From Tubiluchus corallicola (Eukaryota > Animalia > Priapulida): DNA of 64,000 bases. Positions 29,558 to 62,702 of the stretch are shown here, one piece after another. A model generated the notes under the pieces. It saw nothing but the letters and a program-made list of their open reading frames with translations. It was not told the DNA's origin and did no database searches. Within the stretch, counting starts at the first letter, position 1. Each line of letters opens with the position of its first letter. The stretch is from NCBI GenBank assembly GCA_030141605.1, contig JAQGDQ010000001.1:3100001-3164000 (forward strand), in the 5' to 3' direction. The position numbers and the translations under genes were made by a program.

Positions 29558-32500
29558 ATGACTAAAGAACGAGTGAATGTGATCAATAGTTACTTTGTGA
29601 GGGCAATGTCATTGCATCAGGTATGTTAGAATAATTTGAAAATGAAACAAATAGGGAGTGAAAAACTGCAAAGAAGTGTTTTTATTATGATTGTTTTCTG
29701 CCAAGCTTTTCTTAACATCATAAAGGTAAATATACATGATGCATATAAGTAGCAGTACTAGACTAAGATAACAATATTACTTGCAAGTAATTTTTGTACA
29801 AGCTCATTCATTGGGAATTTTAATCTTAGAATAGGTAATATGACTAAAAGGATATATTTTAACATTTAGTTAAAATGCATCATTTTTGTCTTTTAGGAAA
29901 CAGCACATGATAATGGAATAATCAGAAGTCCATTTCCAGATGTCTCAATTCCTAGTGATGTCACTATTTTTCAGAGTGTATTTAATAATTTGGATATTTA
30001 TGCACATAGCACTGCTGTAGTAGATGCCATAAGCGGGAGATCATACACATATCTTGACTTATCTTTAGCTGTAAAGAAATTTAGCAGTGCTTTGGCGCGG
30101 AACGGATTCAAAAAGAGTGATGTTTTTGCCATTTGCATGCCCAACTGCCCTGAATTTGTCATTTTCTTTTTTGCTGTAATTGGCTTAGGTGGAACAGTCA
30201 CGCCAATAAATCCGGCATACACTACTAGAGAAATCCGTAATCAGTTATGTGATTCTGAAGCAAAATGGATAATATCTGTGCAAGAATTAGAAAAAAAGAT
30301 TTGTAATGCTACATCAAACATCGCTGCAATAAAACACAAAATATTTATGGGAGGAAAATCCTCTGAAAAGAATTTTTCTGCTGAAGAATTACTTCAAGAT
30401 AATGGTTCTTGCTTTCCAAAACATGTACCAATTGATGTCCAAACGGATGTTGCAATTTTACCATATTCTTCTGGTACAACTGGTAAGCCCAAAGGTGTAA
30501 TGCTGACGCACTATTCTATAGTTGCAAATCTTCACCAAACAAAGATACAATGGCCATTTCGACCCGGAGACAAATACATTTGCTTTGTGCCAATGTACCA
30601 TGCATATGGTATTTACTTGACGTTGGGTGCTTTAAGTAATGGTTCCAGTGTGTATTATTTGCCAAAGTTTCACCCAGATACTTTTCTTGGAACTATCCAG
30701 AAATACAAAATTACTCATGCACACCTTGTTCCTCCAGTGATTATTTTCCTTGTCAAGTCTCCATTAGTGGAAAAGTACGATTTATCATCATTTCAGACTG
30801 CGTACAGTGGCTCAGCACCATTAGGTAATTTTTAATATATGATTTACTCAGTTTTGCAATGTAAATGTCATTACAGATAGTTACTTCTTATATTAATTAG
30901 TTTTATTTTGTTGTGCAATTGTCAACATTTTTGTTGATAAAAAATGATTTGAAGATTGAACATTCTCTGTCTGAAAACACAATTGAGCAAATTTGCATTG
31001 TGTAATATCATGTGATTCCTTATAATTTCATATAGTTCTTAAATCAATTTTGTAATTAGCAAACGTATGACAATTTATTGATATCTAAATTTTGTAAATA
31101 ACTGCAAACTGTGTGTATTGAACTTTGCTCTAGATTTTACTATGCACAAATCTATTTCAGTTAAATATTTTAAATTTCTAAAATATTCTTAGTTTGTTAG
31201 ATCTAATATGTTACTGCAAGTTATGTAGTAAGAATTTATAATATTTTTATTGATATTTAGCAAAAGAAATAAGCGATGCTTTTGTGAGAAAGTTTTCTCA
31301 CTTAAAAACCTTTCAACAAGGTTATGGAATGACAGAAACAAGTCCTGTCGTATGTGCTACACCAGAATGGGAGATTTTGCCTTCTACTGTTGGATACGTT
31401 GTGCCAAATTCAGAAGCAAAGGTAATGTCAGTTGTATAAGTTTCAGTGAAGTTTCTAAAGCAATTTTTATGATGCGAAAAACGTATTGTAGATGTTTATA
31501 TGGCCTGTCGTGCTATTACTTTAGTGTTTTCTCTTAGTTGCAAAGTACTGTGATGTTTGCATTGTGTAATATCATGTGATTCCCTATAATTATATAATTC
31601 GTAAATCAATTTTGTAACTGGCAAGCGCAAAGTGGCATTTACCAGACATTCGGAATGCTTAATGCATTTTGTGTTATCCACCTGCGGAATAGCTCCTTAT
31701 AAAAAATCAATAGGAAATAGCTGCAGAAAAAAATAATGTATATTGCAGGTCTGATAAACGGGTGCATTGAAAACAGTGTGAACCGATTTTATCTATTCTG
31801 CATCTGCATAAAGCATAAACATTCCAGATGTCTAGTAAATGAAACTTCATATGGCTGGCATATAGCATATTGCATACGATCAGGTGAACTACTGGCGAAG
31901 CTGTTAGTTTCGTTGATGGACTACCAAGCTTTTTTTGTATGTGGCATAGCGCCATTTAATCATCTATTTGTATGCAACTCGTAATTGCAGTGGGCACCAC
32001 CTAATTTGAGTATGCTAGCAGTTGATTGACGAGCACATTTGTTTTATTCTAGCTCTAACAAACCAAAGTGGTTCTTATTCAGGTTGTTGATTTAAAGACT
32101 GGTGAAGCGCTTGGTCCTAATAAAGAAGGAGAGATATATGTAAGAGGTCCTCATATCATGAAGGGTTATTTGAACAATTCTTCTGCTACTGCTGAAGCTA
32201 TAGATTCTGAAGGATTTCTTCATACTGGGGATACTGGCTATTATGATGAAGAGGGGTATGTCACATATTAAATATCGCCATTTGTACAGTTTAGCAACAA
32301 TATTCCAAGAAGGGAATAAAAAATGACTAAAATGACTTTTAAAAGTTGACGTTGAACTTTTAAAAATCTGCATGCGTTATTAATAGTAGAGCATCTTAAT
32401 TAGTTAAACAGACCTGCGAATTCTCATTACATTAATTAGGTATGTATCACCAATGCACATGCACATTCGAATCAGATTTTAGTACTGATGCATTCCACAA

Positions 32501-33964
32501 CTTCACATGCAAGTTTGCACATTGCTTGGCTTCCTTTGCCATTAGTATGCCTGCTACTCTCAATAATATAGTAGCGCTTATAGTCCTATAATGTATGTTA
32601 TACTAAAGGGTATTACAATTATTGGAAATTAAGCACTTTTGGGTATTACTGAGCTTTTTTCATATACCGACTATAATACATTAGTAGTACACCTGCTACT
32701 CTCAATAATAGAGTAGCGTTTATGAGTCTTATAATGTATATTATACTAAAGGGCATTACAATTATTGAAAATTAAGCATTTTTGGGTGCTACTGAGCTTT
32801 TTTCATATGTACAAAGGAACATATTTATACGTATAGCATAGTGAGCTATAATAACAGCTCAGTAGTACCATAAAATTGTCTTAATTTTAATTTTTTGCCT
32901 TAACTTTTTCGTAATTTGATTTTGATAATTAAAAATGCAAAAATTTCTGCAGCAAAATTTGTCACCTGGACCCCTGCCAGAGCGAGATGATCCCCGGGCT
33001 TTCTACATTTCACACCCGTTTTTACTTCAAATAATTGGGAAGTCTTGTTAAGATAAAGCATATCTATTTAAAGGTCTTTGATGTTTTTCAAAATCAGTGC
33101 ATTTTCTTGCGCTTGTTGACATACACATTGTATGTGACTAGGTCTTAATAGTTCATAAAAAATTAAAAAAATATTCTTATAATATTGTCAAGTCTTTAAA
33201 TTACTTGCACTAAATTGTGTATGTTGTTCTGCATATTATTTTAGTGAAACTTGGTTAGTACAATAAAGTAGCAGTTAACTTGCCCACTAATTTTGGTACT
33301 ACCCAACTAACTGTCTCATAACAAACTCCTAATTTAAGAAAGTTACATGTGATATTGCAGTTCTCCTAAAATGCTGCACAGATTTACTTGTTTTTTATAG
33401 CGAATCACATAAATAAAAATGAATAAAGCCAAAATACTGAAGAAGAATAAGAGAAAAATAAAGCCAAAATACTGCAGACTTACAGTATTGAATACTGAAT
33501 ACTGCAAACTTGCATTCATAATGATTTAAAGGTACTAAAATTATGATTTGCTTATTACTTAGTGGTAAACAATGTGAACTGAAACATTATTTAGCAATAT
33601 CTTATTAATTTGCAGGCATTTCTTCATAGTTGATCGAGTAAAGGAGTTAATCAAATATAATGCATACCAAGTGGCACCAGCAGAGCTTGAAGCATTGCTC
33701 CTTTCTCATCCGTATGTAGCTGATGCCGCTGTTATAGGAATTCCTAATGAACGCACTGGGGAGCTTCCTAAAGCATACATAGTAAAAAAGAACATCGACC
33801 TGACAAGAAGAGAAGTTCAGAAGTTTATAGAGAAAAATACAGCACCATTCAAGTGGCTCAGAGGTGGAGTGGAGTTTGTGTCAGAAATACCGAGATCTGC
33901 TAGCGGGAAAATTTTGCGAAAGTCTTTGCGTGATAGAGCAAGAAATACTAATGCAAAATTATAA
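29558..33964 (+). CDS. Luciferase-like / 4-coumarate-CoA-ligase-like acyl-CoA synthetase, paralog 1 (C-terminal PTS1 AKL)
   Basis: Exons 29558-29620 ([21 protein letters not shown]; acceptor at 29530), 29897-30824, 31261-31421, 32083-32255, 33616-33964; 557 aa from this ATG. Motifs: [40 protein letters not shown]. The true start may be further upstream. Confidence 0.93.
32541..32807. repeat. Imperfect ~140-bp tandem duplication in the last intron of paralog 1
   Basis: attagta..cctgctactctcaataatat..gtagcg...actgagcttttttcatat occurs twice. Confidence 0.85.
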
Positions 33965-36092
33965 AACTTGCTGACTATAAAAATGTTGTGTAACTCATCA
34001 GGTATATAATTTGATGTTTAACATTTCAGTATTTCCTTTTTGGATACAATTATGTACATGTTAATTTATATGTTGTCTTAACAATGCATTTTTGTTACAT
34101 TTTGACGTTATTTTGGCTACTGTTTTTGTAAAGATTCTGCATGTAGCATTACAGTAAAATGCAAAGAAACTTGTTTATCAGAATTGTGTGACAAAATACA
34201 CAAGATAACTACAAGACAAGTTAGATGTGATAAGCAAAAATTTGCATGCTAAAACAAGTGTTACTCGAAATACTGGACTACTGGTCAAGTGTTTCATCGA
34301 ACTCAAGATTGTGGATCAAAAATCCAACTCCGCTAATAGATGTGAAATGTTCTAGTATATTTCTTCGCAGGTTTAGATTTAAGTTTAGGTTTTGTAAAAA
34401 CTTAGATGGGTCATTGCTCTACTTGAATTCATGATGGGAAATCGAAAATCCGAATCCGACTCTGTCAATCGAATCTAAGTTGATACAGAATTCATTCTAG
34501 TGTGTGTCCTATAAAGTTTTATGATGATCCGTTGCTAACTGGTGGAGCTGTAGCCTTTTTTGAATATCATATTGCTGTAAGTTTGAATTCAAAATGGCAG
34601 ATCGAAACAAGGACTATGTCAATCGATTCGGAGTTCATTCTAGTATATTCCTGTAATGTTTCTTGACAATCTACTATAAATTCGCATTTAGAAAAAGGCT
34701 TAAGGTTCCACCAATTCACAGCAAATCGAGACAAAATTATATAGGAATATACTAGAATGAGTTCCACATCAACTGGTGGAATAAGATTTTTGATATGTCA
34801 TTTTGAATTTAACATGATGACAACATAATCATTTTCAACACATCATCATGAAATTTCACAGCTAAAACAAATTCTGCATCAACTGACGGAGTCCTATTTT
34901 CAATCTGCTATTTTAAATTCAAAATGGCAATGATGGTGCCATTTTCAAAAAAATACAAAGGTTTTTTTGAAAACAACAACAACATCCAGGTGAGTAGGGA
35001 TTTGGTTTGATCCATCGACCATGAAGTGATATAGTCTGGAGTGTTTGAAGGCATAATACTGTGGATCAAATTTTTTCGTGCAAATTGTCATATGCATGTT
35101 GCATGAACAGTATTAGAATGTTTCAGTACATAAACTTTGGATTTCGTTGTTTATAAATTCCTCTGGTTAGAATTAGAACAGAAAATTATTGATTATGTCA
35201 ATTTTATGAAGTTGTTCATTTTTTGTTGATTTTTGTATGGTTGTTGGTTTTGTTTGACGTTTGATTGTTAAATATTTAGAAATTAATTATTTAAATTTTA
35301 ATTGTTTGTTGCCTATATAGAATTTTGTGAAAGCATTGCAAAATGTGTTAATAATCTTATTTTTCGTTAATAATGAAATAAAATAATTATTTTAATTTGT
35401 GTTTGTTAGAATTTTAGGAAACGGATTATGTAAAAGAAAAATAATTTGACAGTGTTTGAATAAAGAATGTTAACCACATACAGAAATAACATTGCAATAA
35501 TAATAATAATAACAATAATAGTAAGTTTTCTATTTCTTTTTGAATATTTACAAGCACTTGTCTAAATGCCTAGTAGCAAATTGTTTTTGTGTTTGCAGTC
35601 ATTAGTTTTTGAGTACAAAGATTATATTGTTTTAGTATTACTAATTTGTTGTGTTTTGAGTACTTGACATTAGCACTGCTGATTTATAATGCAAAATGAA
35701 CTTTTGATATAGCAAATACGTTGCTAGATGGCAGTAATGGGGTTGGCAGTAGCTCTATTTTCAATACTATATGTGGGAAAAAGGAGTGAAGCAAAGAATT
35801 ACATTTTTGGTTAAAGCAAGTTTATCTGTTGCTTTGTTTTTAAGTTGTCGTTTTCCAATTTACCATCTGTTTCACCGTTGACATTTGGATAAGGTCCCAT
35901 TCCAGTGCAATCTATCCACATCTCCATTGCCTGAAATGTAAACCTTGTTAGTTTGGATGTACTTACTTTAGCCATTACATTTTTGTAGTTATTGAATACT
36001 TAAGTAAGTCACACCATTGACTGATAACTGTGACCTTCTAACCGGAGGCTCCTGCTAATTATATAATAAGCCTTTTCATGTTTTCGTTGTGC

Positions 36093-36218
36093 GCACACGT
36101 AGTTGCTGTAGGTCAAATGTTAAGTGTACTACAGCAACGCATCTTAACTACAACTGCACACGTAGTTGCTGTAGGTCAAATGTTAAGTGTACTACAGCAA
36201 CGCATCTTAACTACAACT
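36093..36218. repeat. Perfect 63-bp tandem duplication; each unit contains a 10-bp inverted repeat
   Basis: gcacacgtagttgctgtaggtcaaatgttaagtgtactacagcaacgcatcttaactacaact x2; gttgctgtag pairs with ctacagcaac. Confidence 0.92.
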
Positions 36219-37372
36219 GTCACACGACATGTAGGTAAAGCAAAGGGTCTGCCACACCAGTTCAGTAACTTTAGATGTTTTACGTCTACTTTACTTAATT
36301 ATGCATTAGTCTGTGTGTAGAGTGATTTACTAGTAGGATCTTGCTTGGTAACAAGAAAAAATGAACTAGGTAAGGTTCTAGTTAGGTGTTAAAACTGTTA
36401 ATGTTATAGTTGCTTAGGCTGCGAGGCATTGTCAAGTGTACACAAATGCTTTGTCTGGTATACTTAACCTTTGACTTTTCATGATCATCATCAATTACTG
36501 AAACTGTGAAAATGCTTATTAATCAACATGTTTCCTGTTTGTTTTCTATTATGTTGTCTGAAAGTTTTTCATGCACCTGACTAATGCACTCATTCACTTA
36601 TTGAGCTGATCTTATTTTTATGTTTAGCCTAACATATGACCCAGTTTCACTTATTTTTTCGAACATATTTAATGCATATCTGTCTCACATTGACACGAAA
36701 ACTGTTTCATGCATGTTTGTAAACACAGGCATTTCACAACTATTACTATTTTACAAGAGTTACAATTTCACAACTGTCACTATTTCACAAATGTCTCTTC
36801 TTATGCTCTTGTTGTCGTAATTATGTATTTAAACATAGTACATTAGTACATGTTTTTATAAAAGTGCACATAATTTTTGATTAATGGTTTTTAGTGCTGC
36901 AGAGCACAGTATAATAAACTTGGAAAATCACCGTAATCTTCTACTCTCTATACTTATACCTATATTTGAATAGGAACAGCTTTAATTATTGAGATCTATA
37001 CTCATTTCGTTGCATAGGAATGTTTGTATTTAGAAGGTGCAAGTACTTTTGTATATATACATTAAGCCAAACTGCAAATTCGTATAGTATATGTGAGTGT
37101 TCAAGGATTAATAGTGTAGTGACATTAGTTAAACACGTTATGGACATTATACTCTGTCAGTATGATGATTGCCAAGAGTGGAACTGAAATAAATGTATAC
37201 AGATCATTAAGCTGTGATTTCTCACTTAGCTGCAGCTGGAACGTACTTTACTTTTGTACTGATTGGGCCAATGTTAACTTAATAGTGTATAATGTCATTT
37301 GTGAACTTTCAGAACACGAGGACGAAATACACTATGCTTTAATTCAACGTACCATACTTATTGGAAACTACA

Positions 37373-40300
37373 ATGAAGAGCATGTGGAAAATGCCATCTG
37401 CGAATGCTAGTGAAAGGCTTGGCAGGATATCTTCACATTTGTGTGATGACAGGACATCTTATGTTGTAAGTACTATTAATCAATTTTATTTTTCTTGATG
37501 GTGAAAACGAGTCATAGCACACAAAGAATTGTAATGCTTTCCTTTTGACTTGTCATGCAGCTCTGATCTTTTCCTTTCTTAGCTGACTCCAGCTTATAGT
37601 AACAGTCGCTTTATGTACATACTCACACATGTGCGCCCGTGTGTGTGCGCTTGCATGTGTACACACGTGTGTGTAATCAATAGAAACATGTTGTCATGCT
37701 AATCTTAAGATTCACATTTAAAAATGCATACAAATATAGATATTTGTTCCTCACAAACGTTTTAGATGCTTCAGAGGTTTACGTATTTATTTCTCACGTT
37801 AAGGTCTATGTTTAATGCCTTGAGTCTGGACATGAACAGATTGCCAAAATAACAATACACGTTAAGAAGTCTTTTGGAGATTGTCAGTCTTATCCATGTG
37901 TTTACCTCTTTGCTTATTGTAAGAGGTAGCATTAGTAGTTCTCAAAGTAGAAATTGCAAAATTTATGAAAGTTTGTGTGAAATATAATGAAACGTAAAAT
38001 TTGATTGTTTTTTTATAGACAAATCGACTATGCCATGAGGCCAGTTCATGCGAGTTAATTGTGAGAAGCCCATTTCCTGATGTCTTTATTCCTAACAACT
38101 TGCCACTCTATCAGTTGCTCTTGAAAGCTGGCACAAAATACCCAAACAACTTAGCCGTAGTTGACGCTGTAACTGGACAATCATATACGTATCATCAGTT
38201 ACACAAAGTAGTCAGAAAACTTAGCAGTGCTTTAACCAGACAGGGGTTTAGAAAGGGTGACACCCTTGCGTTATGTGTTCGCAACTGTCCGGAGTTCGTT
38301 ATAGTCTTTCTTGGTGTTGTGGGCATTGGTGGAATATTATCACCAATTAATCCTTTATACACATCTTATGAAATACGTAGTCAGCTGCTGGACTCGGGGG
38401 CGAAATGGATCATAACGGAAGTGGAAGTTCAAGAGAAGGTTCGTGACGCAGCAGCAAGACTGTCTGGAATGCGAGGTTTTTTTATTGTGAATGATAAAGC
38501 ATTTCAAAAGAAGTCTTCATTTGGTGGATTGCTAGAGGATGATGGTTCTGCTATTCCTGAGTGCATAAGAATTGACGTTAAGTATGATGTAGCTGTACTA
38601 CCCTACTCATCAGGAACTACAGGACTGCCCAAGGGAGTTATGCTAACCCATTACAATTTGGTAGCCAACATTCACCAAGCTCAAGCTGCATGGCCTTTTC
38701 TGCCAAACAATAAGTACATTTGCTTTCTGCCAGCTTTCCATTCATATGGCATATTTCTCTTACTTGGTGCACTAAGTCATGGATCTGGCATATATATGCT
38801 TCCTGGGTTTCAACCAGAGACTTTCTTGAGTAGCATACAAAAATACAGGATCACGCATGCTCATCTAGTACCTCCTGTGATCACATTCTTAGTTAAATCA
38901 GCAATGGTGGATAATTATGACTTGTCTTCTCTGCAGACTATTTACAGTGCTGCAGCTCCCTTAGGTAGTAAATGATATGACCTTTTCTTATTTGTTTTTC
39001 TGTTAATGTTTGACTTTTCTAAATAGTGCAAATAATTCTAATAGCTTTTTCTTTTTAAAATTTTTCATAGAGTTCTCAAAATATCGAATTTAAGAAGAAA
39101 ATGGCAGTATTTTTCATTAGATATAGAGTCAATATTTTAGACATGTAACCATCAGTGACTATTAATTGCTTTAGTACATATCATTTGCTCACCATTGATC
39201 ACACTGTACTTCACATTGGGCTGTGAGTGACATTAGGTTGACCAAATTGTAGGCCTAATTTGCTGCTGGAACTTCGAAAGCTATCTTTGTTTACCTGCAA
39301 AAGAGCAAGAAAGGAATCATGCAAAAATTACCAAGTTTAGTTGGTATTATTGTTCATTCAGAATCAGCCTTTTATTCAGATATTGTGTTGCAATCAGAAA
39401 AATTACGCAGATAATCAGAAACTAATAAAAGCATTTGCAGACAATGTTTAAATTTTAAGGTAGTATCTTTGCCTATAGTACATATCCTGTAAATGTTATG
39501 AGTGCATTTCTTTAGATACATCAGTTTTATTATACCTTTTTGGTGTCAACAATTGATGGATTGTCACTGTTTGTTTAGCGAAAGACATTGGTATGGCGTT
39601 AATGAGAAAATTTTCGCACCTCAGGGCTTTTCAGCAAGGTTATGGTTTGACAGAAACGAGTCCAGTCGTAACAGCTACACCGGAATGGGAAATCATGCCG
39701 GCTACATCAGGTTATCTTATACCAAATACAGAAGTCAAGGTACATACAGATTTTGGTTTTTATGGAATCTTAACTGAGCAGTAATTAAAAGTATTAAGAG
39801 GTTTTGTTAATCCTTGATAGCCAGAGTAATAATCATGCCCTGTATTTAGTTTCACATTATCTTGAGTATAACGCATGAATTAAAGTAAATTTCCAGTTGC
39901 TTTGTTAGGTTTCAGCTAAGTTGAATCAAACTAGTTTCTTCATTAGTTTCAATCAAGTATTTTTTACTTCAATAGTAGCATTTAGTTTTTGATATACAGC
40001 TGTACTTGCATCATTGTGAATAATATTAAACTGTGGCTACGTAACTTGCTAAGAATTTTTGTATCTCATTACAAGTATTTTGATTAGTTTAGAGTCAGAG
40101 CAGCCATTAATTTAAGGTTCTTTTAATTTGCGAATTCTGGCTGATGAAAGGGAAATGTTTAAGTAGGCACAATCAATGCCTTGCAAACTGGTGCTTAAAA
40201 TGAAGTTTCAAAATTTCATTTGCCATGTTTACAAATTATGTGCCTTGTTGAGGGAAGATACAATGTTTTGCACATGTATCTGAATGCAGCTACTGTATAA

Positions 40301-43300
40301 ACAATCTGTGCTGATTTAATGTTTTCTCACCTTCATGAACTTCATCACCTTTCAGCAGCCCTTTCAACAAGTGCTAGATCCCGCTTGCAGGGTGATAAAC
40401 AGCATAAAAAGTGGCTGGTATTATAAAGAAAATGAACATTTTGACTACATTATAATGTGCATATTAATATCAATTATAACACAGTTTTCTTTATGTTAGG
40501 TTGTACATCTTGAAACTAAGGCAATAGTTGGGCCAAATGTGGAAGGAGAAATCTGTGTGAGAGGCCCTCAAGTGATGAAAGGATATTTGAATAATCTAAA
40601 AGCCACCAGTGAAAGTGTTGATGCAGATGGTTTTTTCCATACAGGTGATACTGGATATTATACTAACGATGGGTAAGAAATTTGGCATAGTGTGTATTGG
40701 TGTTACATAATGTTAGTTTTAGGCCACGGCATGTGCGTAAAAGCAATTGGGAAGGAGGAAGATAGTGGTCAGTTTTTTGCGACTGAGTTTGATTAAAATT
40801 TAGATTAATGAACCAACAGTCTTCTTGCATTTCTGTTCTGTGTACGATGGAGGGGCGGTTGGAGGGGCGGTTATACTTAGATAAGATCTAGTAGTTATAA
40901 TGCACAGAATAAAAGTAAAATTTGATCTATCATTAATTGAAAAATGAATAAACATCATTCGAAAATATGGAGCAGTTAAGCTGAAAACTGTTACATGATT
41001 TGTTATTAAGGGATTTCTGTTTGATTGTTGCACTGTTACAGGTGCTAATCATTTGCTGGCACACAAATGGTGAATGGCATGAATGGCTACACTGCTCACA
41101 GTGGTTAAAACAATGTGCAAGTTGGAGCATTATTCCAGTAACACAACAGTTAAAAATCAATCATTATAGATTTTAATGTTCAGATATAAAACCATCCCAA
41201 AAACAAGCATTTACATTGAACTACTGTTGAAGTGTGTTTTGGTTATTTATTTATTTATTAAATATACCCACAACGATCATTACAGCATAGCACGTAAAAG
41301 AATTTAATATCATATTTATCATTATGTACACAAGATGCCAAGCTGCAAATGATCCGTGGGATACTCAAGAAGTAATTACTTGTTCAGAGCACCCCAAATG
41401 AATGTGGATTGAGTGTAGTAGAAAAGAACAGTAAATGAGTAGAAAGGAAAAGTTAATAGGGAATAAAAAGAAAGAGAAAGATGTGATGGTATCTGTATGA
41501 AGTAATGCGAACTATAGAAATGTAAAAATCGACATAGATAGCAACGCGATGGATCCCGACAGGGACAGCAACATAATTAGCCAAATTTATTTCTTCTATA
41601 TAATTAGAAAAGATTTCACTTTTACAATTTCTTTTGAAGTTGTTTATAGATAAGAATTTTTTATGTATTCGTTGATGTTATTCTAAAGTCTAGGACCAGT
41701 GTTAGTGATGAAGTGCCTTGCCGCATCAGTCCTGCAATACTTAATTAGAAATTCATTAGATCTTGTTTAGTAATGTCTTACATTAGTAGATAATGGGTTT
41801 AAAAAGAAAGTGGGAAGTAGCTTATGTTTGGTTTTGTATATGTAAATAGTGGTATTTAGATTTATTTGATCATTTAGTGCTAGGATAGAATAGTTCTTAA
41901 AAAGATTAAGACCTACATTTTTACGCTTGTTCAAATTAGCTATCAATCTTATGAACTTACATTGTAGAGAGTTTAATTTAAGTATAGATGAAGGGTAGGT
42001 GTGCCCCCAAAATATATTACAGTAGGTTAAGTATGGCAGTACTAGACAATTATAAAGTGTGATAAGATGTTCTTTAGTAAAATAATGTTTCACTCACGTT
42101 TAACGCAATTTTAGAATGAATCATATTTAAGTGTGGTTTCCAATGTAAGCGTTCATTTAAGATAACACCTAAGAACTTCATTTCATTTACTTGTTCTACT
42201 GCATTGCCATTAATTTTTATAATACTGTTCATATTTATATATTGTTACTAGCTCTGAATAAACTGTATTTACTTTTTGTTGAATTTAATGCAAATTTGTT
42301 GATTATAAACCAGGCTGTAATTTTACCGAGTTCACTATTAATAGTGTCAAGTAGCTTGCTGTTTATCCTGAAGATAATACTTGTGTCATCAGCAAATTGG
42401 AAGACCTTTCCATTGTCAGTAATACAGTTTTGTAAGTCATTAATATATATTAAAAGCAACAGAGGTCGAAAAATAGATCCCTAGGGTACGCCATGTGTGA
42501 CTATTGCTTCATTGGGAAGGACATTGTTACATCTGACTACTTGAATTCGGTCCTTGAGGTTATTAGCATTCCATGAGTATGCCACCCTTCTAATGCCATC
42601 CTGGAATAATTTATCTAGCAAAACATCATGATTAACTGTATCAAAGGCCTTAGAGAGGTTGCAAAAATGCCAATGGCAACAGTGTTTTGTTCTAATGAAT
42701 TAATTATGTTGTTTATTATATTAATTAGGGCTAGCCGTGTAGAACTGCCCTTTCTAAAGCCATGCTGATGATTATAAGGTGCATTTTCTATGGTCAAGTA
42801 GTCTAATAATCTTTTATAGACAATTTTTTCTAATATTGTAGCAAAAAAAGCTAATAATAATATAGGTCTATAGTTATTAATATTTAAGGAGTCTTTAACC
42901 TTAAATAAAGGAATAATTACTGATTTGTTTTTAGTTGATAAGGTAATATTCCTGTTGTCAATGAGCGATTTGTTATATGTGTTAAAGGAGCAGCTAAGTT
43001 ATCAATTAAATCAATTATGACTTTGGGTAGAAAATTATCAAAGCCTGCCCCTTTATTATGGTTGAAAGATTTACAAGTAGATTTTAATTCATTTATTGTA
43101 ACAGGACTGAACATAAAAGCAGATTAATAATCACCCTTAAGATAAACTTTAGGGTTAGCACCAGTATTTGGAATTTCTGCAGCTAATTTTTGACTAATCT
43201 GCAAGAAATGCTCGTTGAAAGCACAAGTGACAGGTTAATTGTCAGTTATTATAACTTGCTCTTACCTTTAAGGGCATATGAACCAGATTTTCTATCTGAC

Positions 43301-44851
43301 TGTATAATTTCTTTCATAATAATCCACGTTTTCTTCAAGTTAGTTTTAACATGTTCTAGTTTGTTTTGATAATAATTAGATTTAGAGAATTTTATCATAT
43401 TGTTTAACCTATTACGATACTGTTTGTATTCATGAATAGTGAGATCATAATTAATATCATTCTTGAGAAGTTGAGTATACATCTTATTTTCACATTTAAT
43501 GCTATTTAAGATGGCAGGTGTTATCCATGGCTTTTTAATGGCACCAGAATTTATATTAGTGTTGTTAATTGTAGTTATATTGTTATTGTACATCATTTAA
43601 AATTTATCTAAAAATAAATTATATGCTTCTTGTGGTTCAGATGTAGTATACACATCATTCCAATCAATGTTATCCAAGTCAGAAGCTAACTTGCGTTTGT
43701 TGAATGTTGAATGTTGAACTATTAGGCGTTATACGTGTGGTAAGGTAAATTATAAGGAAATAAGTTTTGCAAGCAGATGTGGCAATACCAAACAACACCA
43801 GCAGCTGGTAGTTTATCTTTTAAAGAAAAATAAGTACATTTTAGATGAATAATTCTGCCGCAGCAGTCGCAGTTCAACCGCCTGCTGGTTGCGTCGAATA
43901 CATTTATCGCATATTGGACAAAAACTGTGTACAGGTACCATCAAAAAGCGCAGGGAAAATCAGGGTTAAAGAGATTACAGAATAGAAAAAGAATAAAAAA
44001 ACAGAATAAAATATCGCTAGAGGAGTGTAAGTTTAAAATATGAAAAAAAGTCATATAATCACATAAAGTCACTACTTTATGTAAGTGCAATACCACTTTT
44101 ATTAGCATTGCACAGAAGCAACTTCTTTGGGTCGTATGACCACATTTTTGAAGAAGTACTAAAACTTGTGAAATATCTGCAGTAGTTACATCAAAATTAT
44201 TAAAAGCGAAATGTCAAAAGTTGTACTTTATTGACATAAAAGGTTACGTTTTAGTGCACTACACTATTTGTATATAGCCACATGTGCAGTTTGTCATGCA
44301 AATTGGCTTGCAGTCTTGTAATTGATTATACCATGGATGCTCCTTTCTTTGTGCTTTGTTCTTAGCTCATTATTTTTAATGTTATTTTTTTGTCCTTAGA
44401 TAATTCTGTCGTAAGACCATATGTAATTAAGCATAAAAAATAGTTACTATTAGATTAGCAGTTTTTATAGACTAACTATTTTCTCTCTCATTCTTTTTTT
44501 AGACATTTCTTTATTGTTGATCGGGTAAAAGAGCTCATCAAATACAATGCATACCAAGTGGCACCAGCTGAACTTGAAGCTTTGCTTCTTTCTCAGCCAG
44601 GCATAGCTGACGCTGCTGTTATTGGAATTCCAAATCAGCGCACAGGAGAATTGCCTAAGGCATACATCGTGAAAAAGAATGAACAGCTGACCGAAGAAGA
44701 AGTTAAGAAAGTTATAGAGGAAAAACTGGCAGCATTTAAATGGCTTAGAGGAGGTGTACAATTCACAACAGAGATCCCAAGATCCATAAGTGGTAAGATC
44801 TTGAGAAAAGTGCTGCGGGACATTGAGAGGAAAAAGTGCCAGGTATTATAA
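37373..44851 (+). CDS. Luciferase-like / 4CL-like acyl-CoA synthetase, paralog 2 (N-terminal PTS2, no PTS1)
   Basis: Exons 37373-37465 ([31 protein letters not shown]; in-frame TAA upstream at 37340), 38019-38964, 39579-39739, 40500-40672, 44503-44851; 573 aa. Motifs: [31 protein letters not shown]; ends KKCQVL*. Confidence 0.93.
41243..43720 (-). mobile_element. 5'-truncated CR1/L2-clade LINE (RT and C-terminal region), antisense in the last intron of paralog 2
   Basis: Minus-strand fragments [74 protein letters not shown]; (TAAA)n tail at 41243-41260; multiple stops and frameshifts. Confidence 0.9.
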
Positions 44852-45967: not shown

Positions 45968-46045
45968 ACCTGTGTGGTGTAATGGTTGCATATCTGCCCA
46001 GAAAGAGGAAGGTTTTGTGTTCGAGTCCTAGTTGAGATGCAAATT
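45968..46045 (+). mobile_element. tRNA-derived SINE-like relic
   Basis: A-box-like TGGTGTAATGG and B-box-like GTTCGAGTCC at tRNA spacing, followed by a T-run; no intact cloverleaf. Confidence 0.45.
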
Positions 46046-51180: not shown

Positions 51181-54100
51181 CTTTGTAACTTCAGGTTGTC
51201 GAGTCGTATTGACTGGGTTAGAGAGACAGTTAAAACAGGTACATCTTTATCAGCAGCTGAGAGATTGAAAGGGCTAAAGGGACACCTATCTTGCCATTCT
51301 TTGGTATGATGCCTGATCATTACTGACTTATAATCTTAAGATTCTATAATCTTAATATTAAGATTATTATTAATGATGGTACAAATCTGCAGTTTATTGT
51401 ATCTAAAGACCATATGTGAAAAATAGGTTAAAGTGTTACCAGTAGGGGAACTGCAGGCTCAACATTAAAATTAATTCAATTAGTAGTTAGAACTGCTCTA
51501 GTATGAGTGATCTAACTTTGGAAATGCTGAACTGGCGGACCAGCTACAAGTGATTAACTTTGGATTGTTACAATTGGAACTGATTAGTCTAATGGCTTTG
51601 ACATCTGCTTTGTCAGCAGATAGTCCCTTTTCAAATGCAGACTATGTTCGAGCTTTTTTACATTTCTTGATTTTCAAGTTCAATTTTCTAAATTCAGTTA
51701 ATTGTTTCTTTGTACCATTGCATCTGACTGTGTAGCTCATTAAACAGTATTACGAAAATGAAGAAACATTTATGTTAATCAATTTTAATTTGGGATAACA
51801 GTATTAACTCTTAATTCATATCTTTTATAAAGTGTTAATAAATTATAATTATTTGCCTTACTGCCAAAAAGCAAAATCGTGATGCCGATTTTGAGAAAAG
51901 GATGATTCACTAATGTATAGTACATACGTAGGGTGCATGGACATTAAAATAATTTTGTTTTTCAGCAAACAGTTGGTTGTAGCAGCTCTAGTCAGTTCTT
52001 CGTTCGCTGCCCATTTCCAGAAGTTTCCTTGCCTGATAATGTAACTGTATCTCAGTTCTGCTTACACGAATGTGACAAACATCCTGATCGCGTTGCCTTA
52101 ATTGATGCAAATACAGGTTTGATGTACACTTATGGGAAGTTAAAAATTTTAGTGAGAAATTTTGGCTACTCACTGGTGCAGCTGGGTTTTAGAAAAGGTG
52201 ACGTATTTGCGATATGTTCTCCGAACTCTCCAGAATACATTATCGTTTTCTTGGCAGCTGTTCAACTTGGAGGTATTATAACAACTACTAATCCAGAAAA
52301 CACTGATCATGAGCTGTATGGCCAGTTTGTAGATTCGGGCGCAAAGTGGGTGTACACAACGTCTTTGATACAAGAAAAGGTTGGTAGTGCAGCTATAAGG
52401 ACTGGTCAAATACGGAAGATTATAGTTTTGGGAAATGCACATTTTAAGGACACTGTAACATTTGATGACTTGCTTCAAAGCGATGCACCAGCATTTCTAA
52501 ATCAATGTAAAATTAATGTAAAAGCTGACTTGGCAATATTGCCGTATTCTTCGGGAACTACAGGAAAGCCGAAGGGAGTTCAGTTGACACACTACAATGT
52601 TGTAGCGAACAATCTCCAGGCTCAACTGCAATGGCCATTCAGACAAGAAAACAAGTATCTTTTTCTTGTGCCAATGTTTCACATTTATGGCACTTTTCTT
52701 ATACTTGGAATTCTGCATAGTGGTGCTGCTTGTGTCATCTTGCCCAAGTTTCACCCACCTGATTTCTTGAACACCATCCAGAAGTACAAGATAACTCATG
52801 TTCATCTTGTTCCACCAATCATTAATTTTTTGGTGAAATCTAGCATGCCAAATACCTATGACTTGTCATCATTACAAACTATTTATTGCGGTGCAGCACC
52901 TTTAGGTAAGATTTTCACATCTTTTCCGAAGATCTATTTTTTTAGTAAAGTATGTCTCAGAAGTTGGTTTACATTTTGATGCTGCTTACGGTTACAAGAG
53001 TTAATGCATCAACCAAAATATAGGTGTTTAAAATAAGGTCAAAATTTTTAGCCAGATATTCATTAAGAAATAATGGAAACATTGGCATATGTTGTCATCG
53101 TTAAAATGAACTGTTGTTATATGGGGAGTTGTTTTAACTCTCTCCATCACTTTCAATATTGAATGATAAATTCAGAAACCAAAGTTGCCGTAAGAGGTTG
53201 TTAAAAATAAGAGCTTGACTGCTTTTAGATATTCTTGAAACTATATGTACGTGTGGCTTTGTGGCTGTTTTTTAACCTCTAACATTAAGGTTTTGACAGT
53301 TTAACATCTCATGAGTCTTTTATTAAAAGAAAAGTCATGGCTGTTGTTGGCAAGTTGACTTATTTTAACATCTGAGAAAAATGTTATAAAGTTTAAGCAA
53401 TAAAATTCCCATAAGCGCCTCTTGTAATTAGTGGCAGCAATTTGAAGTAGTGATCATTTCACGCTATTCATTGGGTGCACTCATTATGAATGAAAAATGA
53501 CATCGTTCGGTTACTGTGCAATATCAACCCTTCAGTGCTTCATAGTGTTTAAGCGAACTTTTGCAAATGCAGGCACTGTTATTAACTATAAACTATCCAA
53601 AATATTAAAGGAGAGATTATAAATACTGTTTTTTTATTAATCTGGTTGCCCACTGTGTAAGGAAAGCAATTACTGATGACAGAACAGTAATACGAAAATC
53701 TGGCTAGTTAACTCCCAGAGAGCAACAGAATAATTAGTTTAATAAGCTAAAACTCAACTTTATAAGCTAGGTAACCCACCTGACATCAGTACGTAGGTGC
53801 AAAATTGCACGCTTGTCTAAAAGTCAACATATATCTGTATGTCCAGTACAATACTTGCGATTTTTAAGATATAATCCTGTGAATTAAAACTGTGGAATAA
53901 GGTAACATAACAAGTATTAGCAATGTAAGTTGATGCTAATTGAGCGGATGACTAATTTTTACAAAAACATAATTAAACACAAAGATTTAATCAGCTAGTG
54001 AGTGAACTCCAGAAATTTTGCTATGCGTGCCTTCGTGCTGTCTGCTAGCTTATGTAATTTTTTTCAAATGTGCCCGCAGTGAGGCTCGCTTAGTGGGAAA

Positions 54101-55991
54101 TAAGAATTTAAATTTCTCTTGCATTTTAACAAGGTGTTTTATGCACGCATATTGTGTAATAATTTTAATATTTTTAATTGCTTATTAAGATACAATGAAT
54201 GTCGTTTGAGATTAGTTTTCCTTTTAAATTCGAGTTTGTGGAATATGAATTTTAGCTTTAATTTATTGTTGCTTCATTGGATAAATCTTTCTTACAAAAT
54301 TATTATCACTGCTGACTTAACCACTGACCTGAACTGCAAGTGCTTAAACCAAAGTTTTACGGCAGGTTTATCCATCTAACTGACACTTTTTCTCGTTTCT
54401 TATTAGCAAAAGAAGTAGGAGATGAGCTGTTAAAAAAATTTCCAACTTTGAAGACTTTCCAGCAAGCTTGGGGTATGACTGAGACAAGTCCTATTGGCAC
54501 GGCTATGCCGGAAAACGAGGCATTTTCTGGCTCAGTTGGCTACCCTGTGTTAAATACAGAAATGAAGGTACTTATTTAAACGCAGTTACAAATCCTATAA
54601 GAATTTTTGTTCTAACGCTTCTGCCCTGTTTCGTAATTACGTTAGTGTTGATTGTGAATTGCCAAATGTTTTTTAAGTATTGTTAATGTTGATTTAGGTT
54701 GTTGACTTTGAAACGGGTGTATCGCTTGGTCCGAACAAAGAGGGTGAACTGTGGCTTCGAGGACCTCAAGTGATGAAGGGCTACCTCAACAACCAGACCG
54801 CAACTAACGAATGCATTATGGCCGATGGATTTCTGCGAACTGGAGATACTGGATATTACACTGAGGATGGGTAAGTATTTGTTCAACACATTTCAAAGCT
54901 CATATAAATCTTAAGTGGTGACTTATGACTGATTATTTTCTTTTAACTTTTGAACAGATTGTTCAAAATGGAGTTTGTAAACTAACATAGATGTAGCAAA
55001 AGCAGCAATAATAGTATGTTAATTTTAAACCACTTAAGAAAGTAAAAGGGTTTTCCTTTATTTTTGGTTCCATTTCAACATGGCTTTAGTTGCAAAAATG
55101 ATCATCTAAATGTGGATACAAAAATTTTGAAAACTGTTTAGTAGGAATTGCTCAATGAGAATCGAATTTTCTGTAGCTTTTTTCTTTGAAGAAACCATGG
55201 ATAGGGTTAATGATGGTACAAACCCCACAATTAATGAAAGAAAGATAGGAAATGTGAAAAGTTGTAATACAACCAAGATTTGAACCAATACCTGCAATAT
55301 TGAAAATGCTGAATTTGGGTGGCCATCTATAAGGCTGTACTTTGGACTGCCTTGATCACTGAGAATTCAGTTGCCTAGTGGTCTAAGGCATCTGACTTTT
55401 AAACAGGGTCCCTGCCACCTGGTTCGAAGTCAAACTGTTTTCTCAACTTTTTCAAATTTTCACTCATTCAAGCTTCTATTAAAATTTAATTGTTGCTTTT
55501 GTACCATCACCATTAATAATAATAATAATGATAATCATGAACAATCTTATTATTATAATAATTAATGGGTAGGATTAAATTGTGGAGAGGTAAGACGAGT
55601 TATGAAAAAACTGTAGGAAGGTAAATGGCAATTGCTTGTTTTCATTTATAGGCATTTCTTTATCATTGATCGAGTAAAAGAGCTCATTAAGTACAATGCA
55701 TATCAAGTAGCACCAGCTGAGTTGGAAGCGCTGTTGCTGACGCATCCTGGTGTAGAAGACGTTGCTGTAATTGGAATTCCAAATGAATGGTCAGGAGAAG
55801 TACCAAAAGCCTTTGTTGTGAGGAAGCATGACAATGTGACAAAGAGAGAGTTGATCAAGTATGCTGAGCAGAGACTTGCACGTTATAAATGGATCAGGGG
55901 CGGTATTGAATTTGTACCAGAAATTCCTAAATCACCAAGTGGAAAAATCTTAAGAAAAGTTTTACGGATGAAAGAAAAAAGTAAACTTTAA
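51181..55991 (+). CDS. Luciferase-like / 4CL-like acyl-CoA synthetase, paralog 3 (PTS2 and PTS1 SKL); start-codon exon probably further upstream
   Basis: Exons 51181 (or 51195)-51303 (...AAERLKGLKGHLSCHSL), 51966-52905, 54407-54567, 54698-54870, 55652-55991. Motifs: [31 protein letters not shown]; ends KSKL*. The PTS2 exon has no in-frame ATG. Confidence 0.92.
55366..55440 (+). mobile_element. tRNA-derived SINE-like / pseudo-tRNA relic in the last intron of paralog 3
   Basis: TTGCCTAGTGGTCTAAGGC (A-box/D-arm-like) and GGTTCGAA (B-box); stems degenerate. Confidence 0.45.
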
Positions 55992-59190: not shown

Positions 59191-59326
59191 TAGATCTCAG
59201 CATGATATTGCACTACACAGATGTGTGTGAGCTACATATATATATTAGGTTTCACATATGTGTGTATGACCCATGAACATTACGAGCTACACACGTCTGT
59301 GTGGTGCAATATCATGCTGAGATCTA
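59191..59326. repeat. Near-perfect 136-bp hairpin (~40-bp arms), probable miniature foldback element
   Basis: tagatctcagcatgatattgcactacacagatgtgtgt pairs with acacacgtctgtgtggtgcaatatcatgctgagatcta; TA at both ends. Confidence 0.88.
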
Positions 59327-59437
59327 CCTCTTTATTTACTAGCTTATTTCAAATATTTCTCTTTGAGTTTAATTGCAATAGAACTTTTAACAATTGCTGC
59401 AGTTTGTATTGTACAAATTATGTTTTCAGCATTAGAT

Positions 59438-62400
59438 ATGGCAAACAGAAATTACTTATCATTACCAAGCAAGCCAGTTGAGGAACAACTGCAAAGAACA
59501 TTTGGACACACGGTCAAACCAGCAGCTCTGGTATGTTAAATTTGCTAGTTGATTATGATATCAATTGCATTACTATAGGTGTTCATATGCTTTTACTTTG
59601 AAATGTTTGGATGTTTTGACATGTTAGCAGCATTGCAGCAGCCACACTTTGTTTAAAAATTTCAATGCCATGGCAGCACATCCAGACATTACAAAATAAG
59701 AATTATGAGAATGGTCATCTTTTTGAACTGTCGGTTCAATGATGGCCAAACACATGACTTGTTGATTATATCTATGATACTGTTTGAAAGTTCTGTTGAA
59801 GCTAATAAAAACATGCAGTGTTACTTCTCCAGATAATTTACAAAGACTTTTAATTTCAAATCATCTAACAAAAGTTATTATTTGGAAAAAACTTAATATT
59901 TCATTTTTGATCACTACAGATGCTATAGGCTGTATGATTTTCGGAAAAATGATAAATATTTTTAGATAAAGAAAATTTATTAAACGTTATTATTAGAATA
60001 TTTTTTTCAGAAAATTGCATCGTGTAGTGCACAAGGTAACATCATCAGAAGTCCATTTCCCGATGTTGATATACCAGATGTTTCAGTTTATCAGCTTTTT
60101 CTGAACAGTTGTTTTGCATACCCACAAAATTTAGCAGTCGTTGATGCTGAAAATGGCCAAGCATATACCTATGAACGATTACTGAGATGCGTAAAAAAAT
60201 TTGGCAGTGCTCTTGTACGGAGAGGATTTAGGAAAGGTGACATATTGGCAATATGTGTTCCCAACTGCCCAGAGTACGTAATACCATTCTTTGCTACAGT
60301 GGCTATTGGCGGAATAGTAACAACAATAAATCCTGTTTATACTGCAAATGAAATATATCATCAATTGCAAGATTCTCAGCCAAAATGGATAGTGACAGCA
60401 CCTGAAGTACTAGAACGTGTCTCTCAAGCTGTTGATATGAAAATGGGAAATGAAGTAGTCATTGTTATTGGGGAAGAAGTGACTAAAAAGCATTTGTTGT
60501 TTTACAACTTATTAAAAGATGATGGAAACGCCTTCCCAGAATGTGTTCCAATAAATGTGCAAAACGATGTAGCCATTTTGCCATATTCGTCAGGTACCAC
60601 AGGGAAGCCAAAAGGAGTAATGTTAACACATTACAATTTAGTAGCCAGTGTGCATCAGACAAGAATGTGTTGGCCTGTTGCACAAGAAAACAGATATATT
60701 TGTTTTCTACCTATGTTCCATTTATATGGAATCTTTTTAACTCTGCTTGCGCTAAGTCATGGAGCATGTATCTATTATCTTTCAAAGTTTGAACCAAGGT
60801 TATTTCTTCAAACACTGGAAAAGTACAAGATAACACATGCACACCTTGTACCACCCGTTGTTAACTTCTTGGTCAAGTCGCCACTTACAATGAAATATGA
60901 TTTGTCAAATCTTGAGAAAGCTTACTGTGGAGCTGCTCCATTAGGTAGGTGTGTAGTGCAAGTTGCTTATTTTTCTTCAATAGTCCGATCATCATCACAG
61001 TAACTTTTAACAAAGAAGTCAGCGCTAGTAAAAATGGTTATAAGAACATCCGCATTGATTTGGCAATTGTGGTAGGCCTGATCTAATATGGGGATGATTT
61101 ACACTTTTTGTACTTTCAGGAAAAGAAACTAGTGAAGAACTTCTACGAAAAATTTCGTCATTGCAATTGTTGCAGCAAGGTTTTGGCATGACAGAAACAA
61201 GCCCTGCTATCACCGTCTGTCCAGAAACAGAAATGATTCCATCTACTGTAGGATATGTTGTGCCAAACTCTGAAGTGAAGGTAACTAGTAAAAGTGGTTT
61301 TTAACTCTTATTCAGTTAGGGAACATTTATATTTCCGAAATTACGTTAAATTTTTATAACATTTCTGATTATTGTTGTAGGTTGTTGACTTACATAGCGG
61401 AAAAGTTCTTGGCCCAAATGAGGAAGGTGAGATCTGTGTACGAGGTCCCCAAGTGATGAAGGGGTATCTGAATAATCCAAAAGCAACAAATGAAACTATT
61501 TATCCTGATGGTTTTTTGCATACTGGTGATACTGGTTACTACACTGATAAAGGGTCTGTACTAATGGAATTTGATAATTTAGAGTTTAAATACCACAGAC
61601 CCCTAATGTGCAATTTACATCACAGTAACAGCAGTGCACAAGAGTGTGTTGGCCTGTTGTATGAATGTATTGTATTACATTCATGACAAGTAAAATACAC
61701 TACATTAATCCCATATTGCAGCAACACATTTTACCACATTTACGATTATTCATCTATTTTTTGTGTAAGAAATGTCCTAAGTGATATCTTGCTGCTGCAT
61801 ACTTCTTACAGATTACAGTCAGTCAACAAAATTGAACAAATATAGTTAATACAGTGTGATTTTGCAACCTATTACTATTATTATTAGTTACTTAAACTTT
61901 GCTGATAGTGGCTATTATTTAATATTTCCCTAACAGCTTTTTTCATGCCATTATAATAATGATCCACCAACTTTTCTTAAACTTCTGTGGTTCATCAAAC
62001 CAGCAATTTTGTTATTGTTGTCTAGTTATTGGCATCTGAGCTTTTAATTTTATACAGTGTCATAAGAATGTGAATTGAGAGCTTCCAATTTTTTGATACA
62101 GCTGAAAATTGTTTAGTTACAAATTTTGCAGCATGATTTCTGTTGACATCTGTAATCGTTGAGATTTTGTTCATTTAAGCACCAGATTCAGATTTCGGGA
62201 TTAATAATTGCTTGTTGTAATATAGGTTTTTTTTCAGTAAAATATTTTCTCATGAAGTGTTATGGAAGTTAAACGTTGAGAATTGATGGTTTGGGTAAAT
62301 AGGTGCCACACACTTAGTAACCTTTGTTCACTTGCATTGATATATCTTTTCAGACTTTTCTACATTGTTGACAGAGTGAAAGAACTCATAAAGTACAACG

Positions 62401-62702
62401 CGTACCAGGTAGCACCAGCTGAATTGGAAGCATTACTAATATCCCATCCTGGTATAGAAGATGCAGCTGTAATTGGAATTCCTGATATGAGAACTGGTGA
62501 AGTCCCAAAAGCATTTATAGTGAAAAAAGACAAGACCTTAACTGGAGAACAAATTAAGATGTTTGTGAAGCAAAATGTTGCAAATTTCAAACAACTGAGA
62601 GGTGGACTAGAATTTGTGACTGAAATTCCAAAGTCGGGCAGCGGTAAGATTCTCCGAAGGATACTGCGGGAGAGAGAGCAACAAATTCGTAGTAAATACT
62701 GA
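59438..62702 (+). CDS. Luciferase-like / 4CL-like acyl-CoA synthetase, paralog 4 (degenerate PTS2, non-canonical SKY terminus)
   Basis: Exons 59438-59530 (MANRNYLSLPSKPVEEQLQRTFGHTVKPAAL), 60011-60944, 61120-61280, 61381-61553, 62354-62702; 569 aa. Motifs: [31 protein letters not shown]; ends IRSKY*. Confidence 0.93.

Follow-up and report, generated by a model that had tools for sequence, protein, structure and literature searches.

An old tandem array of four 4CL-like acyl-CoA synthetase genes with differing predicted peroxisomal targeting signals

In beetles, the Luc1/PACS/ACS tandem cluster shows gain and loss of the peroxisomal targeting signal PTS1 among clustered copies, as described by Fallon et al. 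2018 (PMC6191289). Such tandem ligase arrays were the raw material of beetle luciferases, and a separate array in another lineage is a useful comparison because beetle luciferases arose in this way; arrays and homologues are common, and alone they are uninformative about light. The Drosophila protein CG6178 is described as a non-luminous C8-C20 fatty acyl-CoA synthetase (PMC10327219), and C. elegans ACS-7 as a PTS1-bearing synthetase with a role with indole-carbonyl ascarosides (PMC5986272). The four tandem genes described here (g1-g4) resemble the beetle cluster in that neighbouring paralogues belong to the same ANL branch and only some of them carry PTS1. In contrast, the beetle Luc/PACS genes have seven exons, whereas g1-g4 have five coding exons, and the beetle luciferase pattern at residues 346-348 is missing in the array. 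The array also contains a PTS2 pattern, whereas Drosophila lacks PTS2 import (PMC8919083). CG6178 (7kyd) was the best-scoring animal structure for P0001, the orthologue of g3, and by analogy g1-g4 are likely to have CG6178-type activity, although the Ser347 position is Leu in CG6178 and Pro in the array. ACS-7, which brings a special substrate into peroxisomal beta-oxidation, is likened to the array by role and not by sequence.

The window, the whole 64-kb stretch of DNA that was analysed, was found to contain four five-exon genes on the plus strand that encode proteins of 557-573 residues with 53-61% identity among paralogues (Table 1). An earlier note on this DNA had described four co-oriented, full-length ANL ligase genes with exons free of stops, and the spliced models indeed contained 0 internal stops. 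Its term full-length holds for the open frames of all four genes but is less certain for the start of g3, which has no ATG in its first coding exon. The P-loop, TGD, DR and SGKILR motifs, the last with the catalytic Lys, were located in each protein, in line with the same note. All 16 introns had GT..AG boundaries and lay at four homologous positions with phases 0, 1, 0 and 2. The introns had been called TE-laden and unalignable by eye. Among the 16 introns, blastn revealed only two repeat pairs, both within a gene, with no alignment between introns of different paralogues, and g2 intron 4 held a LINE remnant (RVT_1, E 1.7e-5, under the Pfam cut-off). No fifth copy was detected in the window by tblastn, and the only other genes identified there were a CLK-type kinase and archease, together with transposon remnants. 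Among 85 candidates, an exon of the CLK gene showed 64% identity both to a centipede and to a nemertean.

Table 1. Genes, targeting motifs and repeat remnant of the array, with positions counted within the window
Feature	Position	Strand	Remark
g1, 4CL-like acyl-CoA synthetase, 557 aa	29558..33964	+	PTS1 (AKL), decayed PTS2
g1 exons	29558-29620, 29897-30824, 31261-31421, 32083-32255, 33616-33964	+	
g1 decayed PTS2 homologue, R-V-x5-Y-F, His to Tyr	29570..29596	+	alignment; no consensus match
g1 PTS1, AKL	33953..33961	+	C-terminus
g2, 573 aa	37373..44851	+	PTS2 intact, without PTS1
g2 exons	37373-37465, 38019-38964, 39579-39739, 40500-40672, 44503-44851	+	
g2 PTS2 nonapeptide, R-L-x5-H-L	37415..37441	+	consensus; matched by 0.2% of exon-1 shuffles
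Broken LINE (reverse transcriptase) remnant, g2 intron 4	41767..43596	-	RVT_1
g2 C-terminus CQVL after basic residues, CaaX-like, no PTS1	44837..44848	+	
g3, 569 aa if read from the ATT aligned with the P0001 Met	51208..55991	+	PTS2 and PTS1
g3 exons	51195/51208-51303, 51966-52905, 54407-54567, 54698-54870, 55652-55991	+	
g3 PTS2 nonapeptide, R-L-x5-H-L	51262..51288	+	1.4% of shuffles match
g3 PTS1, SKL	55980..55988	+	same in P0001
g4, 569 aa	59438..62702	+	decayed PTS2, C-terminus SKY
g4 exons	59438-59530, 60011-60944, 61120-61280, 61381-61553, 62354-62702	+	
g4 decayed PTS2 homologue, Q-L-x5-H-T	59486..59512	+	alignment; no consensus match
g4 C-terminus SKY	62691..62699	+	outside even the broad PTS1 consensus

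Judged from their sequences, g1-g4 belong to the ANL adenylate-forming enzymes and, within these, to the 4CL-like/luciferase-like acyl-CoA synthetases. P0001 matched the Pfam domains AMP-binding and AMP-binding_C above cut-off, while none of the NCBIfam models among the matches listed reached its own. When P0001 was ranked against PDB entries, plant 4CLs scored highest (384-366 bits), followed by CG6178 (348), AncLamp (347) and the extant luciferases (at most 312); by sequence, the 4CL-family proteins, CG6178 and the luciferases were nearest, ahead of FadD, ACSF and NRPS proteins. In the trees, which were built without beetle, plant or nematode sequences, g1-g4 and P0001 fell on one side of a branch with support of 92/91 in one tree and 88 in the other, values under the starred threshold. 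Two homologue searches revealed no protein besides P0001 above 48% identity. The representative search, which was dominated by multi-domain proteins of NRPS size, gave no single-domain match above 47% other than P0001, and the best 40 of 1023 records in the plasmid search included no luciferase, actinobacterial ligases being at the top with about 40%. The nearest invertebrate relatives were '4-coumarate--CoA ligase 1-like / luciferin 4-monooxygenase-like' proteins such as Owenia P0005, Anneissia P0091, the Ephydatia-coded P0014 and Saccoglossus P0007. These and bacterial 4CL-family proteins showed 43-48% identity where full-length ones were compared and had the SP[VAI] loop in common with the array but, unlike g2 and g3, no PTS2 pattern. 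Sponge-like relatives carried long N-terminal extensions that by eye resembled mitochondrial presequences. The array probably represents an expansion, within one lineage, of CoA ligases for hydrophobic acids, with likely relocalisation. Bacterial contamination or recent transfer was ruled out by the spliceosomal introns, the animal neighbours and the separate branch of 36 bacterial-type rows. We also considered the YNAY hinge motif as a clade marker and rejected it, as it occurred in 16 of 226 matches. Searches of titles and the beginnings of abstracts, with most subscription journals outside their reach, returned nothing on this array, on PTS2 in 4CL-like proteins or on a 4CL expansion among invertebrates in connection with luciferase and sponges.

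Saturated synonymous sites (pS 0.70-0.79 and pN 0.25-0.32 between paralogues) and a dN/dS of 0.09-0.16 in the four of six pairs for which it was finite show that the array is old and has evolved under purifying selection. Recent gene conversion was excluded, as the longest identical run between paralogues was only 12-23 nt; even where the hinge peptide was identical, 8-17 of its 23 third positions differed. Both the family placement and the age and constraint proposed in the earlier note thus stand. That note had also set one-to-one orthology of all four genes across distant animals against its reading; because the clade is lineage-restricted, no such orthology was seen with the distant animals sampled.

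To compare targeting signals, a C-terminal (S/A/C)(K/R/H)(L/M) was taken as the PTS1 consensus and an N-terminal (R/K)(L/V/I)x5(H/Q)(L/A) as that of PTS2. Only g1 and g3 matched the PTS1 consensus, with g2 and g4 outside even its broad version, and only g2, g3 and P0001 matched the PTS2 consensus in exon 1. The four consensus positions of the g3 PTS2 were unchanged in P0001, although two spacer residues differed. Among relatives, the PTS2 pattern was found in the first 70 residues of 2 of 124 full-length proteins, one of them P0001, while a PTS1-type tripeptide ended 43 of 120 C-terminal homologue fragments, and the 4CL-like family appears to be commonly peroxisomal. The end of g2 resembles CaaX, the prenylation-box consensus, and such an end was present in 0 of 240 homologue termini. 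Within 2 kb, none of 15 acceptor candidates gave an alternative last exon of g2 that restored PTS1, and the search with the last exon yielded no close relative for comparison of CQVL (best match 65%). A PTS2-like motif can be non-functional, as in a zebrafish example that failed to target (PMC8919083). The targeting pattern was absent from the earlier note.

Upon comparison of the substrate pockets, we found that the 346-348 site reads SPV, SPV, SPI and SPA in g1-g4, respectively, and none of TSA, CCA, CSA or LVA. A site of the SP type recurs in 114 of the 116 relatives that could be read at this position, which were mostly bacterial and sponge-like, with worm proteins also represented. The position of luciferase Arg337, which we take to be a residue at the beetle luciferin pocket, is Gln in all four proteins and in 1 of 116 readable matches. 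The plant 4CLs that were the top PDB matches (Pt4CL1, 3a9u; Nt4CL2, 5bsm) have the ring-stacking Tyr239 and the Pro340 position in common with all four array proteins, whereas Ser243 is replaced by Leu, Gly339 by Ser, Met344 by Ala or Val and Lys303 (3a9u) by Tyr, the last seen in 2 of 119 readable matches. The array thus reads S-P-[VIA]-x-x-[AV] in place of the 4CL signature G339-P-V-L-x-M344. The g3 pocket differs most, as AW replaces the GY of the QGYG motif. An apolar pocket is predicted, one that would not accept D-luciferin or 4-hydroxycinnamates in the normal manner, and a different substrate for each copy is plausible from the pocket differences; however, pocket residues are poor predictors of substrate in 4CLs (PMC12917453).

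We consider it probable that g1-g4 arose long ago by tandem duplication from a single gene for a 4CL-like acyl-CoA synthetase, and that the four enzymes likely convert hydrophobic carboxylic acids to their CoA thioesters at differing predicted locations in the cell. By analogy with the family, an acid and ATP would form acyl-AMP at the P-loop/TGD/Lys site before transfer to CoA, and the products may feed peroxisomal beta-oxidation or clear medium-chain, branched or aryl acids. The motifs suggest an ancestor with both PTS2 (in exon 1) and PTS1, of which g3 would have retained both, g1 PTS1 alone, g2 PTS2 alone and g4 neither, making g4 cytosolic; split location and some substrate change would then have kept all four copies. 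With all four PTS1/PTS2 combinations in four copies, the array offers a simple test of whether relocalisation preserves duplicates. A bolder version, which we consider rather unlikely, is that the lineage gained PTS2 and the copies were then sorted into a dual g3, a PTS1-directed g1, a g2 with PTS2 and a new CaaX membrane anchor and a cytosolic g4, each with a lineage-specific acid bound in a pocket that differs from those of the relatives sampled. If true, the array would be a compact natural example in which relocalisation drives the retention of duplicates in animal specialised metabolism.

It is rather unlikely that at least one copy is a dedicated specialised-metabolism enzyme for an acid that serves as a pheromone, in defence or as a toxin taken up with food. 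Such a role would fit the lineage-restricted clade with its identity gap, the rarity of the shared Tyr and Gln pocket residues and the divergent g3 pocket, and ACS-7 offers a precedent (PMC5986272). However, no tailoring or scaffold enzymes were found near the array within the window, where the CLK-type kinase and archease are the neighbours, and g1, g3 and g4 are preceded by CpG-rich stretches that may be housekeeping-type promoters; the specialised-metabolism cluster of the earlier note was not upheld. Its leaning towards luciferases also found no support, and the enzymes are likely to be ordinary metabolic ones. That one copy is an ATP-dependent luciferase with a non-beetle luciferin is extremely improbable, even though ANL enzymes were co-opted for light emission on more than one occasion (PMC4899746) and g1 exon 3 alone ranked firefly luciferase (35 bits) above plant 4CL (18 bits). 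The 346-348 site matches no luminous pattern, Arg337 is replaced, plant 4CL outscores the luciferases over the whole protein, the five exons differ from the beetle seven (PMC6191289), and homologues of this kind are expected in any animal (PMC5413902). The parallel drawn with squid luminescence also fails, as the squid luciferases are closest to ACSF2 (PMC4899746), on a different branch. Synthetic luciferins, already used in this way with CG6178, could serve to test the enzymes for latent luciferase activity.

Partial decay of the array, with the g3 start and the targeting of g4 or g2 lost by drift under relaxed constraint instead of a partition of function, is very unlikely. The g3 first coding exon has ATT where P0001 has Met, so that a full-length protein would have to begin in an upstream exon or at a codon other than AUG, and the start codon may have been lost in this genome. 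However, g3 is 89.5% identical to P0001 and outside exon 1 differs at just 52 of 537 residues; furthermore, an upstream AT|GT donor (49809), paired with an acceptor of its own, could supply a split ATG, although 5 of the 25 candidate donors do the same. We also used X2, a set of sequencing-run contigs from a diverged relative, the RNA nature of the run being a guess; among the runs listed, none was recorded as RNA. Against X2, g4 exon 1 showed 7 nonsynonymous and 2 synonymous codons, as decay would predict, whereas exon 2, where 14 of the differing codons listed were synonymous and 7 nonsynonymous, is under constraint, and the contigs skip g4 introns 2 and 3, that is, g4 is spliced in the relative. 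X2 contigs did not cover the g1 exons or g3 exons 2-5, which has no bearing on expression. For g2, X2 depth was observed in the bins with exons 2, 4 and 5 and at position 44548.

A six-frame motif scan of the window revealed P-loop, TGD, DR, PxELE and SGKILR motifs in four groups, which lie between 29.5 and 62.7 kb on the forward strand. The gene models built from the sequence gave four ligases (g1, g2, g3 and g4) of 557, 573, 569 and 569 residues, each with five exons and no internal stops; no fifth copy was found within the 64-kb window. All 16 introns were bounded by GT..AG, with homologous positions and phases 0, 1, 0 and 2. The four co-oriented, stop-free ligases with P-loop, TGD, DR and SGKILR described in the earlier note were thus borne out, as was its observation that introns of different copies cannot be aligned. 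A LINE remnant was present inside g2 intron 4. The copies shared 52.7-61.4% protein identity pairwise, and synonymous sites were saturated (pS 0.70-0.79; pN 0.25-0.32), with dN/dS of 0.09-0.16 in the four of six pairs having a finite value; these values agree with the old array under purifying selection proposed earlier. We found no sign of recent gene conversion among g1-g4.

The term "full-length" held for the five-exon models but is less certain for the g3 start, where ATT was aligned with the initial Met of the orthologue P0001 (a Logan record, 89.5% identical to g3). An acceptor-like site preceded every first coding exon, and a split ATG for g3 was possible with 5 of 25 candidate upstream donors, the best being 49809. 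A candidate 13-nt micro-exon involves 49797-49809 and 51195-51210; its last two bases, together with the base that opens the following exon, may possibly form the g3 start codon across the intron.

Among solved structures, P0001 matched plant 4CL best (384-366 bits), followed by Drosophila CG6178 (348 bits) and the ancestral luciferase AncLamp (347 bits), with extant luciferases at 312 bits or less; g4 exon 2 gave the same ranking. Other database relatives were 39-46% identical and comprised bacterial 4CL-family, sponge-like, annelid, hemichordate and crinoid proteins, and a last-exon search also matched corals, nematodes, molluscs, insects and one priapulid. In a 23-row tree, which included 19 hand-picked sequences of 120 database matches and was built without beetle, plant or nematode sequences, g1-g4 and P0001 lay on one side of a branch with support of 92/91, the whole-clade support being below the starred threshold; g1 grouped with g2 (96/91) and g3 with P0001 (100/100). 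A quick 60-row tree gave the same grouping of g1-g4 and P0001 (88). Because of this clade, and because no single-domain protein above 47% besides P0001 was found among the best 150 matches of a full HMMER search (1.84 billion representatives), the expansion looks restricted to this lineage. The relatives P0010 and P0071 have an identical longest-contig value (795904), and neighbouring copies may exist there too.

The short first coding exons aligned as E-[RQ]-[LV]-x5-[HY]-[LFT], and those of g2 and g3 matched the consensus of PTS2, the N-terminal peroxisome targeting signal (PMC5755239, excerpt), as did 0.2% (g2) and 1.4% (g3) of shuffled exon-1 peptides in 20000 trials. Exon 1 differed between g3 and P0001 at 8 of 32 residues; two of these lie in the PTS2 spacer, and the four consensus positions are identical. 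In the homologous segments, His was replaced by Tyr in g1, and Arg by Gln and the last Leu by Thr in g4. At the C-terminus, g1 and g3 end in AKL and SKL, while QVL (g2) and SKY (g4) fall outside even a broad pattern of the C-terminal signal PTS1 (PMC8919083, excerpt). With PTS2 matches in g2 and g3 and PTS1 in g1 and g3, all four combinations are predicted among the copies; these assignments are predictions, since PTS2 look-alikes can fail in cells (PMC8919083, excerpt). The earlier note had overlooked this pattern. A PTS2-like nonapeptide near the N-terminus occurred in 2 of 124 full-length relatives, one being P0001, and a PTS1-type tripeptide ended 43 of 120 C-terminal fragments. The g2 C-terminus has basic residues followed by CQVL, which we take to resemble a CaaX box; no such end occurred in 240 relatives, and a g2 last-exon database search found no orthologue for comparison. 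Clustered copies with and without PTS1 have already been described at the beetle luciferase locus (PMC6191289, excerpt), and no publication that links PTS2 to 4CL-like enzymes was found in literature mostly outside subscription journals. The relative P0002, which branches beside the array (89/82, 23-row tree), shares its rare pocket Tyr, stops at the intron 2 position and has a basic N-terminal extension with no PTS2 match. The sponge-like branch (P0004, P0008, P0014, P0018, P0019 and kin) has long N-terminal extensions resembling mitochondrial presequences and lacks PTS1.

Tyr239 of 4CL, a residue that stacks against the ring of the substrate (PMC12917453, excerpt), is retained in the array. 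The 4CL signature, Ser243 plus G339-P-V-L-x-M344 (bioRxiv 10.1101/2024.10.10.617703, excerpt), is absent: 243 is Leu, 339 is Ser and 344 is Ala or Val. The poplar Lys303 position is Tyr in g1-g4 and in 2 of 119 readable relatives. From these residues the pocket is predicted to be apolar; such residues are poor predictors of substrate (PMC12917453, excerpt). Pocket-neighbouring positions vary among copies, with g3 the most divergent.

Contigs of X2, a sequencing run that diverges from the window and is tentatively classed as RNA, skipped g4 introns 2 and 3, and one departed from the window sequence at the g4 exon-1 donor; X2 depth was also present in bins holding g2 exons 2, 4 and 5. Among the 40 of 77 X2 differences listed, 32 (30 codons) lay in g4 exons 1-2, with 14 synonymous and 7 nonsynonymous codons in exon 2 and 2 and 7, respectively, in exon 1. 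In the run X1, all 30 bins of 28500-46000 were covered, and long exon-matching pieces differed by about 1-2%.

The array probably represents acyl-CoA ligases of hydrophobic acids: one ligase gene would have been duplicated in tandem long ago, and the copies retained through shifts of compartment and substrate. A role devoted to one special metabolite, like that of the C. elegans acyl-CoA synthetase ACS-7 (PMC5986272, excerpt), is unlikely, and partial decay, to which the g3 ATT and the mostly nonsynonymous g4 exon-1 codons point, is very improbable.

That the array encodes luciferase is hardly credible, and the luciferase slant of the earlier note found no backing. In an alignment with Photinus luciferase 321-372, Gln occupies the Arg337 position in the array, and positions 346-348 read S-P-V, S-P-V, S-P-I and S-P-A. 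Luminous beetles have TSA, CCA, CSA or LVA at 346-348 and non-luminous beetle homologues TLA; even among beetles, the triplet at this site is no strict criterion (PMC10798137, excerpt). Ser347 contacts luciferin via a water (PMC10327219, excerpt). The SP pattern recurred in 114 of 116 readable relatives and is, by this comparison, family background. Beetle Luc and most peroxisomal acyl-CoA synthetase (PACS) genes have seven exons (PMC6191289, excerpt), in contrast to five here; g1 exon 3 alone, however, scores luciferase above 4CL. The squid crystal proteins are nearest ACSF2 and only 19-21% identical to firefly luciferase (PMC4899746, excerpt), hence not close kin of the array. A brittle-star paper points out that luciferase homologues of the kind found here should turn up in every animal (PMC5413902, excerpt).

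The specialised-metabolism cluster proposed earlier showed no sign inside the window, as no tailoring enzyme genes were found there; the neighbours are a CLK/Doa-type kinase and an archease.

Features neighbouring or interspersed with the ligase genes
Feature	Position	Strand or location	Remarks
CLK/Doa-type kinase gene	about 3900-12437	+	upstream of array
Archease (ZBTB8OS-like) gene	16875-22883	-	seven exons; two match Pfam Archease below cut-off
LINE-like degraded reading frames	25900-27800	between archease and g1	two pieces without Pfam match
Very high-copy short repeats	36060-36520, 41300-41900, 31680-31800		summed contig depth to about 10000 in X1; present in X2
tRNA-like, SINE-type stretches	55365-55440, 17395-17500, 45965-46040	introns and spacers	by eye

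The last kinase exon was only 64% identical to its nearest database proteins (centipede and nemertean), a hint that sampling of this animal lineage is sparse. CpG-rich stretches lie upstream of g1, g3 and g4. The archease gene points away from g1, and the CpG-rich DNA between them (22000-24500) is possibly a shared two-way promoter. The high-copy repeats are likely SINE or MITE families.
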